From an uncultured Verrucomicrobiae bacterium (GTDB lineage: Bacteria > Verrucomicrobiota > Verrucomicrobiia > Limisphaerales > JAFGQR01), in the NCBI GenBank assembly GCA_963788655.1, contig CAWBHS010000110.1:32001-96000 (forward strand): a DNA stretch of 64,000 nt. Reading direction: 5' to 3'. The notes under the pieces are model-generated. The model worked only from the letters and a program-made list of their open reading frames with translations. It was not told the origin of the DNA and searched no databases. Positions 13,321 through 22,961 of the stretch are shown piece by piece. A program made the position numbers and the translations under genes. The stretch's first letter is position 1. The number at the start of each line of letters is the position of its first letter.

Positions 13321-16300
13321 ATGATCGCGCGTGTCACCTTGGAAATCGCGCTCCGGAAGGAGTTCGACTACTTGATTCCGCCCGAATTGGCCGGGCGGAT
13401 CGAGGTGGGCAGCCGCGTCAAAGTGCCCTTCGGCCCGCGGCAGGTGATGGGGGTGGTTACCGGCCTGCCGGAAGCCTCACCGCATACCAACTTGCGGAGC
13501 ATAGTCAAAGTGATCGGCGCCCAAAGTCCCGTCACGCCCAAGGTGCTGGCGCTGGCCCGCTGGATTGCCGAGTACTATTGTTGCCCGACCGAGATTGCCC
13601 TCAAGAGCGTGCTGCCCGAAGCGGTGCGCCGCGAAAAACAAGGCTGGCGCGAACGCCTGTTTGTGCGGGCCCTACCGGTGACCGGCGAACCACCCAAGCT
13701 GACCCAACGCCAAGCCGAAGTGTGGAAGGTGATTACGGAATGGCACGAGCTGCCGTTGACCGAAATACTGCGCGTCGCCGACACCACGGCTGAAACTATT
13801 CGCCGGCTTGAAGATAAAGGCTTGGTCGCGATTCATTCGCAAGTGTCCGAGCGGGATCCTTACGCCCACGAACATATTCTGCCCACGCAGCCGCTGACGT
13901 TGAACCCGGAACAAAGCCGGGCATTGCGGGCCATCCTGGAAGCGATGGACCGCCCGCAACGTGCTGCCGGCGTCTCGCCGGCAGAAACGGACACGCCGGG
14001 TGCGCTCGCACTACGCGCACGCTCGAACTCTCCCCAGTCCGATGCGGATCCCCTGTTCGGTCTGCCGGCAGGATGCCGGCAGCACGCTCCGGCCAACGTG
14101 CTGCTGGCGTCTCGCCGGCAGAAACGGACCCGCCGGGCACGCTCGAACGATCTTCCCAGTCTGATGCGGATCCCCCGGTCGGTCTGCCGGCAAGATGCCG
14201 GCAGCACGCTCTAGCCAACGTGCTGCTGGCGTCTCGCCGGCAGAAACGGACCCGCCGGGCACGCTCGAACGATCTTCCAGTCTGATGCGGGCTCCCCCGT
14301 TCGGTCTGCCGGCAGGATGCCGGCAGCACGCTCCAGCCATCAAGACGCACAACGTCCCATTTCACCTTTCTTCAACAAAGACGCCCTGACTGAAAAGTAT
14401 TCCGGTTGGCTGCCTCATTGGCGGCAGGCAAGCAAGCTCTACTTTGTTACCTTTCGGCTCAATGATTCGGTGGCCCAGGATCGACTCCGCGCCTGGACCG
14501 AGGAAAACCGCATCTGGCTTTCCTGCCATCCCCAGCCGTGGAGCGACCACGATTGGAAAGAATACCACGAACGGTTTACTGAACGGATGGAGGCATTTTT
14601 GGATGCGGGCTATGGTTCATGTGTCCTCGCCCTCCCGGACATCGGCAAGCTGACCGAAGACGCACTGCATCATTTCGACGGCAACCGTTATCGGCTGGGC
14701 GACTATGTCGTGATGCCCAATCATGTTCACGTTTTGGTACAACCTGCCGGCGATCAGGATCTATCGTCGATTCTCCACTCTTGGAAGTCATTTACGGCCA
14801 AGCAGGCCAATCAACTGCGAGGAACATCCGGCGCATTCTGGCAGGATGAATACTTTGACCACTTGGTGCGAAGCGAAGCTCAATACAACAAGTTTTGTCG
14901 TTACATTCTGGAGAATCCGTCACAAGCTAATCTGCCGCCAACCCGCTACCGGTTGGGGAAAGGCACCTTCGCGCTTCAGCGTGCTCCGGGAGTCGGGTCG
15001 GCGGAACCGAACGCTCAGTGTGCGCTTGAAATCCAGTCACCGATCGAACCGACTATCTCCGCTCGATCTGCCGGCAAGATGCCGGCAGCACGCGCTCAGC
15101 CAACGTGCTGCTGGCGTCTCGCCGGCAGAAACGGACCTGTTGGGTGCGCTCGGACTATCTCCCCAGTCTGATGCGGGATTCCCCGTTCGGTCTGCCGACA
15201 GGATGCCGGCAGCACGTTGTTCCAGCACCACCTTTCTGCTTCACGGCGTCACCGGCAGCGGCAAGACGGAGATCTACTTGCAGGCCATCGCCCACGCGCT
15301 GGAGCAGGGCAAGGGCGCGATTGTGCTGGTGCCGGAAATTTCGCTGACTCCGCAAACCGTCGAACGGTTCAAAGCCCGGTTCTGTTCGGGCCAATTGCAG
15401 ACGCTGGTGGCGGTGCTGCATAGCCATTTGTCCGCTGGCGAACGGCATGATGAATGGCACAAGATCCGTCAGGGCCGTGCCCGCATTGTCATCGGCGCGC
15501 GCTCAGCTATTTTCGCGCCGGTGGAGCCGCTGGGATTGATCATCGTGGACGAGGAACACGAGCATACCTACAAGCAGGAGGAAGCCCCGCGTTACCACGC
15601 CCGCGACGTGGCGGTGGTGCGCGGTCAACGGAAGGTGCGGTCGTGGTGCTCGGTTCGGCCACGCCTTCGATGGAGAGTTATTACAATGCCAAGCGGGGCA
15701 AATACCAACTGCTCGAATTGCCCGACCCGCGTCGATGACCAAAAAATGCCGATCGTACGCGTGGTCGACATGCGCATGGAAACGCGCAAACAAAAAGGCA
15801 CCCCGATCTTCTCGCCTCAACTTAAGGAAGCAATCACCCAGCGACTTGAGAAACATGAACAGGTGATTTTGTTTCTCAACCGGCGTGGCTACTCGACGTT
15901 CGCTGCAATGTCCGCAATGCGGTTACGTGGCCGAATGCCCGAATTGCAGCGTCGCCCTGACCTACCATCGCCCGGTGCAAAAACTCCTCTGCCACATCTG
16001 CGGGCACGAAGCCGTCGCCCCGAAGGTGTGCCCCAATGAAACGTGCCGCAATCCGGCCATCCGCTACGCCGGACTCGGCACGCAGAAGGTCGAGGAAACC
16101 CTGGGCAAACTGTTTCCGCACGCGCGGATCACGCGCATGGACTCCGACGCGCTGAAGCGGAAGGACGATTACCGCCGCATCCTGAGCGAATTTCGCTTGG
16201 GCAAAATTGATATTCTGTCGGCACGCAAATGATTGCCAAAGGGCTGCACTTCCCAAACGTGACGCTGGTGGGCATCATCTACGCCGACCTGAGTCTGCAC

Positions 16301-16799
16301 ATTGCCGACTTCCGCGCTGGCGAACGCACGTTCCAACTGCTCACCCAGGTGGCCGGACGAGCCGGGCGCGGCGACGTGGAAGGCGAGGTGTTTGTGCAGG
16401 CGTTCACCCCGTTTCATCCGGCCATTCAATATGCGCGCCGTCACGATTTCGTCGGGTTTTACGAGCAGGAAATCGAGTCGCGGACAGCTCAAATATCCGC
16501 CGTTCAGCCGGATGGCGCTGTTGATACTCAAAGGCCGCAACGAGGATAAAGTCCGGTTTGCCGCCGACCATGTGCGCCGGGAGCTGGACCCGGCAACCGC
16601 GACGCTGGCCGACTTGGTCATTGCCGGGCCGGCGCCGGCGCCGTTGCTGCGAGCGGAAACGTTTTACCGCTACCAACTCATGATGCGCACGCGGCAGATG
16701 TCCCACTTGAGCCGCATACTGGCCAAGTTGACCGAAGGACTTGTCCTCCCGGAAGGCGTCACACTCACGGTGGACATTGATCCGGTGAACCTGGCTTGA
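13321..16799 (+). CDS. priA: Primosomal protein N' (replication restart helicase), carrying an internal REP/RAYT insertion and several single-base frameshifts
   Basis: EFDYLIP...[24 protein letters not shown]; after the insertion [49 protein letters not shown], four CxxC pairs, [21 protein letters not shown]. Confidence 0.93.
13957..14337. repeat. Three tandem REP-A doublets (REPINs) inside priA
   Basis: Units start at 13957, 14094 and 14216 (137, 122, 122 bp): CGTGCTGC(C/T)GGCGTCTCGCCGGCAG-spacer-CTGCCGGCA(G/A)GATGCCGGCAGCACG. Confidence 0.92.
14317..15171 (+). CDS. REP-associated tyrosine transposase (RAYT / TnpA-REP, Y1 HUH family)
   Basis: [21 protein letters not shown] (HUH), [24 protein letters not shown] (catalytic Tyr); flanked by REP doublets. 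Confidence 0.9.
   Translation: MPAARSSHQDAQRPISPFFNKDALTEKYSGWLPHWRQASKLYFVTFRLNDSVAQDRLRAWTEENRIWLSCHPQPWSDHDWKEYHERFTERMEAFLDAGYGSCVLALPDIGKLTEDALHHFDGNRYRLGDYVVMPNHVHVLVQPAGDQDLSSILHSWKSFTAKQANQLRGTSGAFWQDEYFDHLVRSEAQYNKFCRYILENPSQANLPPTRYRLGKGTFALQRAPGVGSAEPNAQCALEIQSPIEPTISARSAGKMPAARAQPTCCWRLAGRNGPVGCARTISPV
14977..15223. repeat. Two REP-A doublets closing the priA insertion
   Basis: Degenerate unit 14977-15100 (124 bp) and intact unit 15101-15223 (123 bp) that reads in frame into priA STTFLLHG. Confidence 0.85.
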
Positions 16800-17290
16800 C
16801 AACGTGCTGCCGGCATCCTGCCGGCAGATTTGGAACGGCGCGTGGGAAGTCACGCCAGTGGACAAAGTCGGAGCTGGCTCCTGCGTTCGTTTCTGCCGGC
16901 GGGACGCCGGCAGCACGCTGCCCAATGTGCTGCCGGCATCCTGCCGGCAGATTTGGAACGGCGCGTGAGCAGTCACGCCAGTGGGCAAAGTGGGAGCTGG
17001 CTCCTGCACTCGAATCTGCCGGCGGGACACCGGTAGCACGCTGCCCAACGTGCTGCCGGCATCTTGCCGGCAGATTTGGAACGGCGCGTGAGCAGTCACG
17101 CCAGTGGGCAAAGTGGGAGCTGGCTCCTGCGTCCGTTTCTGCCGGCGGGACGCCGGTAGCACGCTGCCCAATGTGCTGCCGGCATCTTGCCGGCAGATTT
17201 GGAACGGTGCGTGGGAAGTCACGCAAGTGGGCAAAGTCGGAGCTGGTTCCTGCATTCGTATCTGCCGGCGGGACGCCGGCGGCACGCTGT
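16800..17290. repeat. Array of four REP-A doublets, 123-bp period
   Basis: Units start at 16800, 16923, 17046 and 17169, immediately after the priA TGA; orientation opposite to the intragenic units. Confidence 0.95.
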
Positions 17291-17378
17291 TGGCGGCAGC
17301 TTAAACCCTCATGTCTCCCATTTCATTTCCGGGCTTTCGTTGTGCGGTGGTTCCTGCTAAACACGCCTCACAGACCAG

Positions 17379-20013
17379 ATGAAAACCAACTTGCTTCTAT
17401 TGATCGCCGCAGTGTGTTTCTGCGTTTCCGCCAACTGGGCGCACTCCGAGGACGAACTTGATCTCGGCCGCGAGGCCGCAGCTTTTTGGCAGGATTCAGC
17501 GGACGTCCCGACGCGCCAATATGCACCCAGCCGGAAGATCGACATTTTGCACCTGGCCCTCGACATCACGCCGGATTTCGAGCAACGCCGCATTCAGGGC
17601 ACCGCCATACTGCAGTTTAAACCGATCGCCCTGCCGTTACCGGAGCTGTGCCTGGATGCCGTGGACTTGGAGATTCAATCGGTGACGGCCACCGAAAAAG
17701 TCATGGGCTGGCAAACCACCGACGAGCACTTGGTAGTGACCTTCGACGAATCCATCACGCCCGGCAAAGAAACGACGGTGACCGTCCATTACCGGGCCAC
17801 GCCGAAACGCGGGCTCTATTTCCGCACGCCGGAGTTGGGTTATCGCCCCGAGGACATCCATTTGTGGACCCAGGGCGAATCCATTCAGGCGCGGTATTGG
17901 TATCCGTGCTACGACTCACCGAATGAAAAATTCACTTCGGAAATCACTTGCCGTGTTCCCCGGGGCATGATGGTGCTTTCCAACGGAAAACTCATGTCCG
18001 AAGAAGGCGACGCCGGCTCGGACCGAGTGGCGGTGCGCTGGCTCCAGGACAAGCCGCACGTCAATTATCTGATCTCCCTGCTCGCCGGGTATTTCAAGGG
18101 CCTGCACGACACGTATCGGGACATCCCGGTCAGTTTTTATACGCCGGTGTCCGAATTCGCGTGGGCCAGCAATTCGTTTGCGGGCACCAAAGACATGCTG
18201 GCGTTCTTCGAGCAGGAAATCGGTGTGCCGTATCCCTGGGCGAAATACGATCAGGTGTGCGTACAGGATTTTGTCGTCGGGGGCATGGAAAACACCAGTA
18301 TCACGACCCTGACCGACCGCACGTTGCACCCGTCGGCATTCGAGGATTTGCGCAGCAGCCAAGGGCTCGTCGCCCACGAAATGGCCCATCAATGGTTTGG
18401 CGATTTGGTGACCTGCAAGGATTGGGCGAACGTATGGCTCAACGAGGGTTTTGCCACCTATTACGAGAAGCTTTACGACGCACACCAACATGGCCGGGAT
18501 CAATTTCTTTACCGGATGTATCAGACCGCCCAGGGCATTCTCGCTCACGCCAACGACACGAATGCGATTGTCCGGCGCGATTTCAAGAAACCCGACGAAC
18601 AGTTTAGTTATCTCGCGTACCCAAAAGGCGCGTGGGTGTTGCACATGCTCCGTTGCCAACTGGGACCGGAGCTCTATCGACGTTGCATCCGGACTTATGT
18701 CGAACGCCATCAATATGCCACGGTCGTCACGTCCGACCTGATTGCGGTTATCGAGGAACTATCCGGCCGCTCGTTCGACCAATTCTTCGATCAATGGGTT
18801 TACCATGCCCATTATCCGGAACTGGCCATCAACTACGGTTGGGACGAACGCAGCAAACTGGCCAAAGTGACCGTGCGCCAAACGCAGAAACTCAGTGCCA
18901 ACGTGCTGCTGTTCCGACGTGCCGCTCCCGGTGCGCTTCAAAGGCAAATTCGGCGCCCTTGACCGGAAGATCATCGTGAACGAACCGGCGGAAGATTTCT
19001 ATTTTCCACTGCCCGAACGTCCGGAAATTGTGCGCCTCGATCCCGAATTGACCCTGTTGGCGAAGATCAACTTCCGACCGCCCACCGCGATGCTGCACGC
19101 CCAATTGGCCGATTCGACGGACATGCTCGGACGCCTGCTGGCGGTGGAACAATTGAGTGGCAAACGCGAAGCGTTGGACCGGTTGCAGGCCGCCCTGGGC
19201 CATGATCCATTCTACGGAGTGCGCCTCGCGGCGTCCAAGGCGATCCGTGCCGTCGGCTCGGATGAAGCCCTTGAAGCGCTGCTGAAATGCCTAAACGAAT
19301 CGGCCAAGAATGCGCAGGTGCGCGAGCGACTGGTGACGGACGCGACGAGTTTCTATCGCCAGAAAAGCTGGTCCACGGCGTTGAAGATTGCGGACGAGGA
19401 CGACAATCCCGACATTCAAGCGGTGGCCATTACGGCGCTGGGCGCTTGTCCTTCCGAGCAAGCCAAGGCCAAGATGGTGGACTTCCTGAGCGCTCCTTCG
19501 TTTCGCAATGTCCTGGCCGACGCCGCCATTGCGGCGATGCGGTCGCAGGATGATCCCGTTTACGTCGAACCTTTGCTGGCTTGTTTGCGGACCAACGAAA
19601 CGGCGTTTACCACCCGCGGATTTTCCCGCGCATTGGATACGCTGGCCTGGCTGGCACGCCATGACGAACATAAAGAACGCGTCCGGGAGTTTCTCTTGAG
19701 TCACATAAACCACCCGAAAGACCACGTTCAACGAGCCGTCATCAGTGCGTTGGGAACGCTGGGTGATTCTCAAGCGATTGCCGCGCTGGAGCGGTTCACG
19801 TACGGCGACGAGGATAGTCCCCTCCGGACGGCGGCGGATAAAGCCGTGGCCGCCCTGCGCGAGGAAAGAAAACCGGCCGTTGAGTTTCGTGCGATGCGGA
19901 AAGAAGTGCTGGACCTGCAACGAGCCAATCGTGATTTGCGAAAGGAACTGGACGACTTAAAGAAGCAGGTGGAGGCCGCAACCTCCCGCGAGCAAAAAGC
20001 AACTGCGCCATAG
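17379..20013 (+). CDS. M1-family aminopeptidase with C-terminal HEAT repeats and coiled coil (frameshift near 18915)
   Basis: Signal peptide, GGMEN, HEMAHQWFG...WLNEGFA, YPKGAWVLHML; HEAT-like repeats in ORF 18895-20013. Confidence 0.9.
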
Positions 20014-20137: not shown

Positions 20138-22961
20138 ATGCACATTCATTCGCTTTCGAAGCTGAGCGCGCGCGCGTATTTCCTGACCGCCGTCCTGTTC
20201 TGCAGTGCGACGGGAACCGGGTTGGCTCAACCAGAAACCACCCCTATTCCCTTGCCCGAGCATCCCCGGCCGGATTTTCAACGGCCGGCCTGGCAAAACT
20301 TGAATGGCCCCTGGCAGTTCCGTTTCGACAAAGCCGACGCCGGGTTGGCCGAACAGTGGTTTGCCGGCAACGTCAAATTTCCGGAGACGATCGTGGTCCC
20401 GTTCCCATGGGGCTCCGCGCTGTCCACCGTACCGGACCAGGCCCGGATCGCCTGGTATGGGCGCACCGTGCGAATGCCGGACGACTGGCGCGGACAGCGC
20501 GTGTTCCTCGTCATCGGCGCGTGCGATTGGGAAACGCAGGCTTGGCTGGACGGCAAACCGCTGGGCACGCACCGGGGCGGTTATACGCCCTTCGAGTTTG
20601 AGCTGACGCCGCAGCTCAAACCGGGCCAGGACCACCGCCTGGTGCTGCGCGTGGACGACGCGGATCGCCCCTTCAAACTCGAAGGCAAACAAGGTTATGG
20701 CAACGCCCGCGGTATCTGGCAAACCGTGTATTTGGAGGCCCGTCCGGCGACCCATTTGCAGACCATCCATTTTGTGCCGGACATCGACCGAGCCGTGGTT
20801 ACCGTGAAAGCAACTTTGAATCAGCCGGTGCCTGCCGGTGCGGAAATGCGTCTCCATTTCACGACCGGCAACGTCGCGGACACTCAACGTCCCGTCGCTC
20901 AAGGAACGCGCGACATTGAATTCGAAATGCCCATTCCTCAAGCACGTCTGTGGTCGCTGGACGATCCGTTTCTTTACGAAGTCACCGCCACCTTGCGGGC
21001 GGGCGAGGCGGTTGACACGGTATCCACCTATTTCGGTATGCGAAAAATTAGCGTGACCAATCTGCCGGGCACTGAGTTCCCCTACGTTGCGCTAAATGGC
21101 AAACCGGTTTATCTCGAAATCACCCTCGACCAGTCGTATCACCCGGAAGGCTTTTACACGTTTCCGAGCGACGCGTTCATGCGGGATGAAATTCTCCGCT
21201 CGCGCCGCCTCGGCCTGAACGCCAACCGGCTGCACGTGAAGATCGATGTGCCCCGCAAACTGTATTGGGCCGATCGGCTGGGATTGCTGCTCATGGCGGA
21301 CGTGCCGAATAGTTGGGGCGAGCCGGATTCCGACATGCGCCACGAAATCGAGTTCGCCCTGCGCGGCATGATCCAACGCGACTTCAATCATCCCGCCATC
21401 TTCGCCTGGGTGCCTTTCAACGAAACCTGGGGACTGTTCACCCGGCAAGGCGACCGGCGAACTTACCTGCCGGACACGCAGGAATGGGTGGCGTCCGTCT
21501 ATCGGCTGGCCCGGCAGCTCGATCCCACCCGATTGGTCGAAGACAATTCGCCGTGCAACCACGATCACGTGGTGACGGACATCAACAGTTGGCACGCGTA
21601 CCTGCCCGGCTATGCTTGGCGGGAACATCTCGATCAGGTGACCCACGACACCTTCCCGGGCTCGAAATGGAACTTTATTGGGGGACGCACTCAGGACCAC
21701 CAGCCGTTGCTGAACAGCGAGTGCGGCAACGTTTGGGGTTACGAGGGCAGCGCCGGCGACGTCGATTGGTGCTGGGATTATCACATCATGATGAATGAGT
21801 TCCGGCGCCATCCGAAAATCTGCGGCTGGCTCTACACCGAGCACCACGACGTGATCAACGAATGGAACGGCTATTACCGGTTTGATCGCTCCGCCAAATA
21901 CACCGGCCTGGAAGAGCTGGTGCCCGGCATGAGTTTGCGCGATTTGCACGGTGCGTTTTACCTCGCGCCCGGCGGGGACCAATGCCGCACGTGAAGCCCG
22001 GCGAGAAAGTCCAGGTGCCGCTTTGGGCTTCCTTCCTCACGGACCGCGCCGCGGGGAACCAGTTGCTTTTGCGCACGGAACTGTACGGCTGGGATTCGTT
22101 GGGCCAGCGGGAAACGTACGCGCAAGCCAACCGGCCAATTGCGTTCGAGCCGTGGATGTCGCGCGCGCTCAAGCCGGTGGAAATCACCATGCCTGACAAA
22201 TCCGCGGCTAGCGGTGCTGAGTTTTACGCTCGAAGACGGCACGGGCGGCGTGTTGCACCGGAACTTCACGACGTTCCTGGTGGCGGACGGACCGTCGCCG
22301 CGCCTGGCACCCGCCAAAATCAACGGCCGGGAAGTGCGGTTGCTCCGCTTCGCGCCCAACCAATTCACCTCGGCGCAATGGTCGGTGAAGCAATGGAATG
22401 TGTTCGACGGGTTGAAGGTCAACGGCGCGGGCCAGGGCTACTTCGAATACCGTTTGCCCTGGCCGCAGGGACTGGACCCGCAAGCCATCGCCAGTGCGCA
22501 GCCTGCGCTTTGAGGCGTCGGCCAAACAACTGTTCGGCAAGGACCGCGAGGGCGCCGCCCAACGGGAGGGCGATTTCATGCGCGGCAAAGGCACGCACGA
22601 TCCGAGTCGCAACCCGAACGCCTATCCGATGACCGACACGGAGTGTTACCCCAGTGCCGTGCGGGTGCGCGTCAACGGTGCGGTGGCCGGCACGTTCGAT
22701 TTGCCGGATGATCCCGCCGATCACCGGGGCATTCTTTCCTGGCACGCCCAATTGCGGGACAAGAAATTGCGCGAGGCCGGCTCGTATGGATACCTCATCA
22801 ATGCAACGATTCCCACCGCCGCGCTGCTTTCCGCCGCCGCCAGCGAAATTGTCGTGCGCCTCGAAGTCGATGCGGCCCTGGCAGGCGGTTTGGCCCTCTA
22901 CGGCGAACGGTTTGGTCGGTACCCAATGGATCCGACGCTGATCTTCGAGATGAAGCAATGA
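20138..22961 (+). CDS. Glycoside hydrolase family 2 (frameshifts near 21990, 22205, 22500)
   Basis: EHPRPDF...WQNLNGPWQF, GIWQTVYLE, LWSLDDPFLY, YWADRLGLL, NHPAIFAWVPFNETWG. Confidence 0.88.

Follow-up and report, generated by a model that had tools for sequence, protein, structure and literature searches.

The stretch of DNA analysed here (the window; 64,000 nucleotides (nt), GCA_963788655.1, contig CAWBHS010000110.1, positions 32,001–96,000, forward strand) comes from an uncultured Verrucomicrobiae bacterium (Limisphaerales; JAFGQR01), the genome of which is represented by an 8.96-Mb assembly of 115 contigs that is 86% complete with 5.6% contamination (G000; the window contig is C110). The gene for the replication-restart helicase PriA (priA, 13321–16799) holds, in the loop that precedes its ATP-binding motif (Walker A), a complete element made of repetitive extragenic palindromic (REP) hairpins and a tyrosine transposase associated with REPs (RAYT), a Y1 nuclease with an HUH motif. 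The cassette covers 1,267 nt (13957–15223), lies between the LNxEQ segment of PriA (LNPEQ...AMDRP) and Walker A and, as delimited by unit alignment, consists of three REP doublets, a RAYT core of 639 nt and two more doublets. The features of the locus are as follows (u1–u5, the five REP doublets of the cassette; aa, amino acids).

13321–13956, forward strand: N-terminal part of priA (3′ DNA-binding domain, winged helix); PF17764, E 3.4e-27; 75% identity over 211 aa to the intact PriA–RAYT fusion P0009, with no frame change.
13957–14093, forward strand: REP doublet u1, 137 nt, in which 15 nt are duplicated internally (unit alignment, hairpins, translation).
14094–14215, forward strand: REP doublet u2, 122 nt, read in a second frame (...CRQDAGSTL) and ending in TAG (unit alignment, translation).
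14212–14214, forward strand: TAG, the sole in-frame stop from the PriA N terminus to the RAYT; CGG or CAG at sibling junctions (unit alignment, translation).
14216–14337, forward strand: REP doublet u3, 122 nt, which differs from u2 by one 1-nt deletion and one 1-nt insertion around a TGA (unit alignment, translation).
14338–14976, forward strand: RAYT (Y1 HUH nuclease) core, 639 nt; HUH codons at 14722–14730, catalytic tyrosine codon at 14902–14904 (PF01797, 33.5 bits; alignment to 4ER8).
14977–15100, forward strand: REP doublet u4, 124 nt, first hairpin degenerate, one extra base at the 3′ junction (about 15091–15100) (unit alignment).
15101–15223, forward strand: REP doublet u5, 123 nt, free of stops in the frame of the helicase (...RMPAARCSS) (open reading frame (ORF) 14723–16039, unit alignment).
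15224–16799, forward strand: helicase core, Cys-rich zinc ribbon and C-terminal domain of priA, stop codon at 16797–16799 (Pfam DEAD, ResIII, Zn_ribbon_PriA and PriA_C; tblastn against P0009).
16800–17291, reverse strand: four REP doublets (123 nt each) of the cassette's family, arrayed between genes in inverted orientation directly after the priA stop (repeat and unit alignment).

A first-pass annotation of this DNA had proposed the same anatomy (doublets of 137, 122 and 122 nt, a RAYT of 639 nt, doublets of 124 and 123 nt, 1,267 nt in total), and its coordinates and unit lengths hold. Comparison with intact relatives also bears out its claim that both junctions join PriA sequence without loss. 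Pfam searches over the gene returned, in order, PriA_3primeBD upstream, Y1_Tnp in the middle, and DEAD/ResIII, Zn_ribbon_PriA and PriA_C downstream. The PriA domains (3′ DNA-binding domain, PF17764; superfamily 2 (SF2) helicase core with Walker A, PF00270/PF04851; Cys-rich zinc ribbon, PF18319; C-terminal domain, PF18074) are collinear with those of intact PriA. A check of the assembly, 86% complete, for a second priA found only this one.

The RAYT core matches Y1_Tnp (PF01797) with 33.5 bits, against a cut-off of 23, and carries the HUH motif as NHVHVLV at 14719–14739. Its catalytic tyrosine is the Y of RYILENP, which aligns on Y115 of Escherichia coli TnpA-REP (Protein Data Bank (PDB) entry 4ER8). 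The Y/S position of E(Y/S)FDH had been a candidate for this residue, a choice that would have left many embedded copies inactive; the alignment to 4ER8 overturned it, placing the tyrosine in YxxxNP, where it is conserved.

The PriA–RAYT architecture exists as an intact ORF in many relatives. We searched a collection of 5.8 billion proteins with the window RAYT, obtained 2006 matches among proteins of 374–2000 aa at E ≤ 1e-10, and analysed the best 120. Of these best long matches, 56 are PriA proteins with the RAYT inside at the same site, 950–1094 aa long when complete and in some cases encoded on contigs of 0.66–1.24 Mb, which answers the question, raised with the annotation, of whether databases hold single ORFs that join PriA and Y1_Tnp. 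RAYT inserts in other core genes, suggested at the same time, were found as well: 35 of the 120 are in DinG-type helicases, 4 in RecG and 25 in other hosts, among them AlaRS-like, PGDH, D-Tyr-tRNA deacylase, Mur ligase, SNF2 and restriction/methylase proteins. Within the order, 49 of 401 sampled genomes had a match at E ≤ 1e-55, and 52 of the 55 matches lie in open frames of at least 565 aa; the three in short frames are the two RAYT copies in the window genome and one locus in G018. For host classification, 32 loci from other genomes were fetched, of which 14 have a canonical PriA host, one a PriA with a divergent RAYT, 11 a DinG and 6 another host. The canonical fusion is thus found in 14 of the 401 genomes, with the frame open and without an internal stop in all 14.

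The catalytic residues are retained across these proteins. NH[VI]H and YxxxNP occur together in 115 of the 120 best long matches, the misses being one truncated protein and four that keep the tyrosine without NP, and an alignment of 43 full-length PriA fusions has H342, H344 and Y402 invariant in every one. The RAYT of the window lies inside priA instead of standing alone in extragenic space, and its counterparts in relatives have neither a start nor a stop codon of their own. It is 54–73% identical to the RAYT parts of intact PriA fusions and at most 60% identical to its stand-alone relatives (6079 matches of 117–373 aa), and therefore belongs to the PriA-resident clade.

Several further fusions were seen along the way. 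The divergent case is G031 of the same order, where priA (L033, contig C88) is an intact ORF of 998 aa that holds, in the same position, a RAYT-like domain with 39% identity across the part that matched; G350 (L042), close to it by PriA, has the canonical RAYT, which suggests that one element replaced another in the same priA loop. In 11 other genomes of the order, dinG has an in-frame RAYT after a TSATL motif; the dinG of the window genome has none. L027 (G013:C6) and L031 (G016:C54) are open frames of about 1,410–1,440 aa with the same RAYT subfamily in frame, and at least ten more matches of the order-wide search lie in open frames of 1,372–1,531 aa.

Each REP doublet is formed by two inverted hairpins with an 8-5-8 layout, CTGCCGGC-N5-GCCGGCAG. 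In the relatives the insert is framed by QRAAG(V/I)xPA on the left and CRQDAGST-F on the right, the hairpin being translated in one orientation and in the other, so that palindromic repeat units are translated within an intact PriA ORF. Within a species the left and right hairpins match each other; from one species to another they vary, and the stems include CTGCCGAC/GTCGGCAG, CTGCCAGC/GCTGGCAG, CTTCCGGC/GCCGGAAG and CCCGGC/GCCGGG. For the hairpin to the right of the RAYT, 94.6% of cells pair across 14 species (11–63% in slid controls), four of the eight pairs show changes on both sides, and the covariation score was reached by none of 500 shuffles. On this comparative evidence, compensatory change preserves the REPs as hairpins although they are translated.

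The same hairpin family is abundant elsewhere in the window genome, with 287 perfect hairpins in 137 clusters. This abundance, together with the recurrence of the architecture in relatives, places the cassette far beyond chance. Among the 13 Y1_Tnp loci of the genome, only the one in priA has this family close by on its flanks, with 5 hairpins inside 1 kb; at one other, a lone hairpin lies at a distance of 520 nt. G001, a genome of the same genus with a priA that lacks the insert, has 0 sites for three hairpin variants, and the fused-priA genomes G270, G275, G125 and G287 have 18, 19, 45 and 8, a comparison weakened by its size and material, as these five genomes are mostly fragmented and fragmented assemblies under-count repeats. 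We infer from these counts and positions that the genome's REPs of the CTGCCGGC type have their cognate enzyme in the RAYT borne by PriA.

Other REPs of the genome also fall in or near genes. Open frames span 12 of the 137 REP clusters; of the 8 scanned with Pfam, two have the REP between matched domains, three have it upstream and three gave no useful match. The two are an FAD-oxidase/Fe–S protein (G000:C62:125297-127741, L066) and HypF (G000:C62:180906-183278, L067), each with a single in-frame hairpin of the priA type (...AGKMPAAR... and ...AGRMPAAR...), so the family also decorates other genes. A second RAYT (G000:C75:71670-72488; L035 2670-3488, minus strand) shares 51% identity with the one in priA and is a stand-alone ORF of 272 aa, with a histidine kinase on one side and a response regulator on the other. 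The REP at its flanks is of another kind, tagged with GTAG (GGACAGGC-N5-GCCTGTCC), and the translation of this REP (GQASRLS, GGTPVLP) forms the ends of the ORF.

The loop that holds the insert is hypervariable, ranging from about 10 to 65 residues in 18 relatives without insert. Some loops, for example that of L019, resemble REP remnants. The insert of the window would encode about 420 aa, compared with 238–366 aa in 43 intact relatives, and is the largest seen. REP amplification within the coding loop is not unique to the window, because the priA of another species, L040 (G270:C57), has its RAYT flanked on both sides by REPs in tandem triplicate (DCRLQVGST three times). Two further fusions have an extra in-frame REP elsewhere in the protein, P0041 in the Cys-rich zinc-ribbon region (WQRASGVAPEE...LPAGSTAAR) and P0004 in the C-terminal domain, within its variable loop (QRAAGVAPA).

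A fusion of 986 aa, modelled with AlphaFold2, has a modest mean predicted local distance difference test (pLDDT) score of 67.5, with a RAYT domain that folds with confidence (block means of 66–90) and a helicase core that folds normally. Residues 212–241 and 431–441, with pLDDT below 50, are the REP-encoded stretches, and the model predicts disordered linkers around a folded RAYT domain. The description of the insert as intein-like but unspliced is consistent with its sequence: the Pfam scan of the insert gave no Hint-family match, only Y1_Tnp, and the residues of intein splice junctions (Cys/Ser/Thr at the N-terminal end; His-Asn and then Cys/Ser/Thr at the C-terminal end) are absent from an insert that starts with QRAAG and ends with ...MPAARCSS. 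Inteins are enriched in essential replication and repair ATPases. The priA insert is like them in being a selfish element that lies in frame near conserved motifs of such an ATPase, where imprecise loss is lethal, and unlike them in having no Hint match and no splice-junction residues, so it must be tolerated in the mature protein. Fusions of HUH nucleases with helicases are also familiar from conjugative relaxases and the Rep/Hel proteins of Helitrons, in which the HUH domain stands in tandem with a superfamily 1 helicase and the two evolved as a unit. PriA–RAYT shares with these the union of HUH nuclease and helicase in one polypeptide; here, in contrast, a Y1 RAYT was inserted secondarily and lies nested within lobe 1 of a helicase of SF2.

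Pairwise identities of the RAYT part and of the PriA core are correlated (r 0.64 over 903 pairs), with means of 60% and 78%. For the pair L043/L044, the one on which the estimate is based (RAYT dS is saturated in three other pairs and 2.3 in one), the ratio of non-synonymous to synonymous substitution rates (dN/dS) is 0.085 in the RAYT, 0.08 in the N-terminal part of PriA and 0.024 in the helicase. By these measures, purifying selection acts on the RAYT part, which diverges in step with PriA. In a tree of 157 RAYT domains (both trees were built with FastTree only), host labels need 13 changes, compared with a shuffled mean of 73, and 71 of the 72 PriA-hosted rows form one clade with 4 RecG-hosted rows (support 96). 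The tree of PriA cores (76 rows) is a point against simple descent of the fused gene: fused and plain alleles are interspersed (15 changes, compared with a shuffled mean of 17.2), and the nearest neighbour of the window is the plain allele of G001 (support 98), so that the history needs many losses or transfers. Together, the interspersed alleles and the near-monophyly of PriA-resident RAYTs suggest that the insertion is old and was lost many times, or else that it spread from one priA allele to another.

As assembled, the window priA is not one ORF: it has one TAG and six frame changes in total. The N terminus of PriA and the RAYT share a frame in which the TAG at 14212–14214 is the only stop between them, as the first-pass annotation had it. 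The RAYT frame closes at a TGA (15169–15171); the helicase frame, offset from it by one base, is open from before 14723 through u5. Doublet u4 is one base longer than its siblings near 15091–15100, in agreement with the proposal that the last doublet reads openly into the helicase and that one extra base there parts the two frames. Ungapped tblastn against P0009 mapped the five other single-base frameshifts that had been noticed in priA to the helicase part (near 15629, 15724, 15899, 16220 and 16481). They fall within 1.57 kb of sequence and, read against the residues of P0009, each lies at a short homopolymer run. The helicase segments are 67–94% identical to P0009, 91–94% in the best of them, without a stop or an excess of amino-acid replacements.

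Neighbouring genes are broken too. The aminopeptidase N gene (17379–20013) has one frameshift near 18900–18960 and a glycoside-hydrolase-like gene (20138–22961) has at least three, from which we conclude that this part of the assembly has frequent indel errors. The genome's own dinG (G000:C75:84914-87080, minus strand) has three frame changes.

Not all single-base differences between the REP units look like errors. Doublet u3 is 95% identical to its near-copy u2 and differs from it by a 1-nt deletion and a 1-nt insertion that flank the unit's TGA in the reading frame of u3; the two compensating indels bracket this codon and so keep the frame open, and the same TGA closes that frame in u5. These single-base differences look selected for an open frame. 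Across the genome, REPs in the same orientation have periods of 122 nt (15 cases), 123 nt (12) and 121 nt (6), so multiples of three are not favoured. A true length of 123 nt for all units was an idea dropped after this count and the comparison of copies, and the earlier suggestion that one-base corrections would make every unit 138 or 123 bp is weakened by the same observations.

The explanation that we favour, with moderate confidence, is that the window priA belongs to a lineage that carries a whole in-frame REPtron in the loop between LNxEQ and Walker A, that the breaks in this copy are most likely consensus errors, and that the element persists through a safe-harbour effect. The REPtron—REP hairpin or hairpins, a RAYT Y1/HUH nuclease and inverted REP hairpin or hairpins—sits within a variable loop of priA and would be translated, without splicing, into a folded RAYT domain held by flexible linkers that the REPs encode. 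To the element, a gene that is indispensable and weakly expressed would be both safe harbour and expression platform, and the element would persist because its imprecise loss would kill priA. The insert would have grown to about 420 aa because REP doublets were tandemly amplified inside the gene, and with the breaks corrected the real gene would be one ORF of roughly 1,150 codons. Judged by the sequence comparisons, assembly error is the probable, if unproven, source of the TAG, of the one-base offset and of the five other frameshifts. The proposal of a single ORF with a translated, unspliced insert in a tolerant loop therefore describes a real and widespread arrangement in relatives, where the ORFs are intact; that it also describes the window copy is reasonably likely. 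Delivery of the nuclease by PriA to single-stranded DNA at forks, also put forward in the annotation, is conjecture.

Several observations weigh against this explanation as it applies to the window. The TAG needs a substitution, whereas the evident errors elsewhere are indels. No frameshift was found in the 1,251 nt of the N-terminal part and RAYT, nor in recG or an SNF2 gene on other contigs; contig-wide ORF lengths look normal, and ORF length per contig did not separate error-prone from clean contigs, so the error rate of the assembly is not uniformly high. Because 122-nt units are the commonest genome-wide, unit lengths are no evidence of error. REP hairpins also supply ATG codons ahead of the RAYT (14317) and of the helicase part (about 15203), which makes a genuinely split gene conceivable. 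Finally, a stand-alone RAYT, P0122, is 60% identical to that of the window (the best such match, the window's own ORF aside; other stand-alone RAYTs reach at most 56%).

These points feed the strongest alternative, that the lesions are real: tandem REP amplification, a CAG-to-TAG change and a one-base insertion would have interrupted priA, leaving either a dead gene or three products that perhaps cooperate, namely the N-terminal part of PriA, a RAYT started at ATG 14317 and a helicase part started near ATG 15203. In addition to the substitution, the two in-frame ATGs, the unremarkable unit lengths and the existence of a stand-alone member of the same clade (P0122), the insert exceeds that of any of the 43 intact relatives. 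A true nonsense or split allele in this genome is possible, and we regard the alternative as a whole as somewhat unlikely. The gene is the single priA of the assembly, its five additional frameshifts come without stops or excess replacements and with 91–94% identity in the best segments, which fits errors and not decay, and the adjacent genes are broken as well. The indel pair in u3 speaks of recent selection for an open frame, and all 14 canonical copies in other species are open.

A second alternative concerns function and is compatible with an intact ORF: PriA may have co-opted the RAYT as a site-specific single-strand nuclease or hairpin binder at REP structures that stalled forks expose, so that it is kept to the benefit of the host and not as a selfish passenger. 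Purifying selection on the RAYT as strong as that on the N-terminal part of PriA would fit this, as would invariant catalytic residues, the presence of the same subfamily in other fork or repair helicases (DinG in 35 and RecG in 4 of the best 120 long matches) and a concentration of intragenic REPs in replication and repair genes, as described in the available portion of PMC3733652. However, the insert has been lost from or is absent in most relatives, its canonical form being present in 14 of 401 genomes and missing from a genome of the same genus, and the subfamily also occupies unrelated genes (AlaRS-like, PGDH, D-Tyr-tRNA deacylase, Mur ligase and methylases). Nor is the enrichment in helicases statistically secure, because the host clades reflect few insertion events (the 13 label changes on the RAYT tree). 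We consider co-option unlikely. Splicing of a free-standing REPtron into priA by the assembler is very improbable, despite a repeat-rich region, an error-prone assembly and 5.6% contamination, as the same site and RAYT clade recur in 14 independently assembled species genomes and dozens of metagenome proteins, and the junctions join PriA without loss.

REPtrons, that is, RAYT or TnpA-REP genes flanked by their own REPs, are a known kind of system (PMC2817692, PMC3333891, PMC8266576 and bioRxiv 10.1101/2021.07.10.451892), with E. coli TnpA-REP (PDB 4ER8) as an example; the last of these papers presents RAYTs as single-copy genes in extragenic space. The priA element resembles them in its Y1 HUH nuclease with HUH motif and catalytic tyrosine, in the inverted REP hairpins on both sides, in the dispersal of the same REP family in high copy, and in vertical inheritance with co-evolution of RAYT and REP. 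It differs in that, in the intact relatives, the whole REPtron lies in frame in a host gene and its REPs are translated, whereas known RAYTs are stand-alone and extragenic. Palindromic repeats in frame within genes are known too, both as Rickettsia palindromic elements and as intragenic REPs; the available part of Di Nocera et al. 2013 (PMC3733652) describes the latter as often lying in replication or repair genes and adding 20–82 residues, with the verrucomicrobium O. terrae the richest. The cases in that part of the article are of repeats only (the strings 'fused' and 'primosom' occur 0 times in it), whereas here a transposase-like enzyme lies within the host ORF. A survey of the RAYT family (PMC6006769) set aside 'unexpectedly long proteins', which it took for fusions or errors of annotation. 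In the literature that we searched, with supplements outside its scope, we found no published description of a RAYT inside a host ORF, and in-frame REPtrons are, as far as could be found, a conserved and unpublished class. What the window adds is the largest insert, built by tandem REP amplification in the gene, the compensating indels of u3 and a large cognate REP population.

For annotation, the consequence is that error-prone assemblies call such genes as three unrelated ORFs. For the biology of RAYTs, the consequence is broader. RAYTs and their REP or REPIN populations have been discussed as vertically inherited, single-copy and extragenic, with unclear expression and benefit. Here a RAYT is conserved over order-level evolution as an in-frame domain of PriA, with REPs that are translated and yet preserved as hairpins, and a replication-restart helicase would set the expression, dosage and location of the enzyme through a natural fusion. 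Beside inteins, this is a new example of a selfish element that shelters in essential replication genes, and it connects REP biology with fork restart in a way that can be tested directly. Tentatively, in-frame REPtrons may represent a distinct, long-lived life-style of mobile elements, in which the nuclease is made only as a domain of PriA, DinG or RecG and the upkeep or mobilisation of REPs is physically coupled to the processing of stalled forks; we rate this as possible and short of probable. If it is true, PriA–RAYT would be a bifunctional protein, both restart helicase and site-specific single-strand nuclease.

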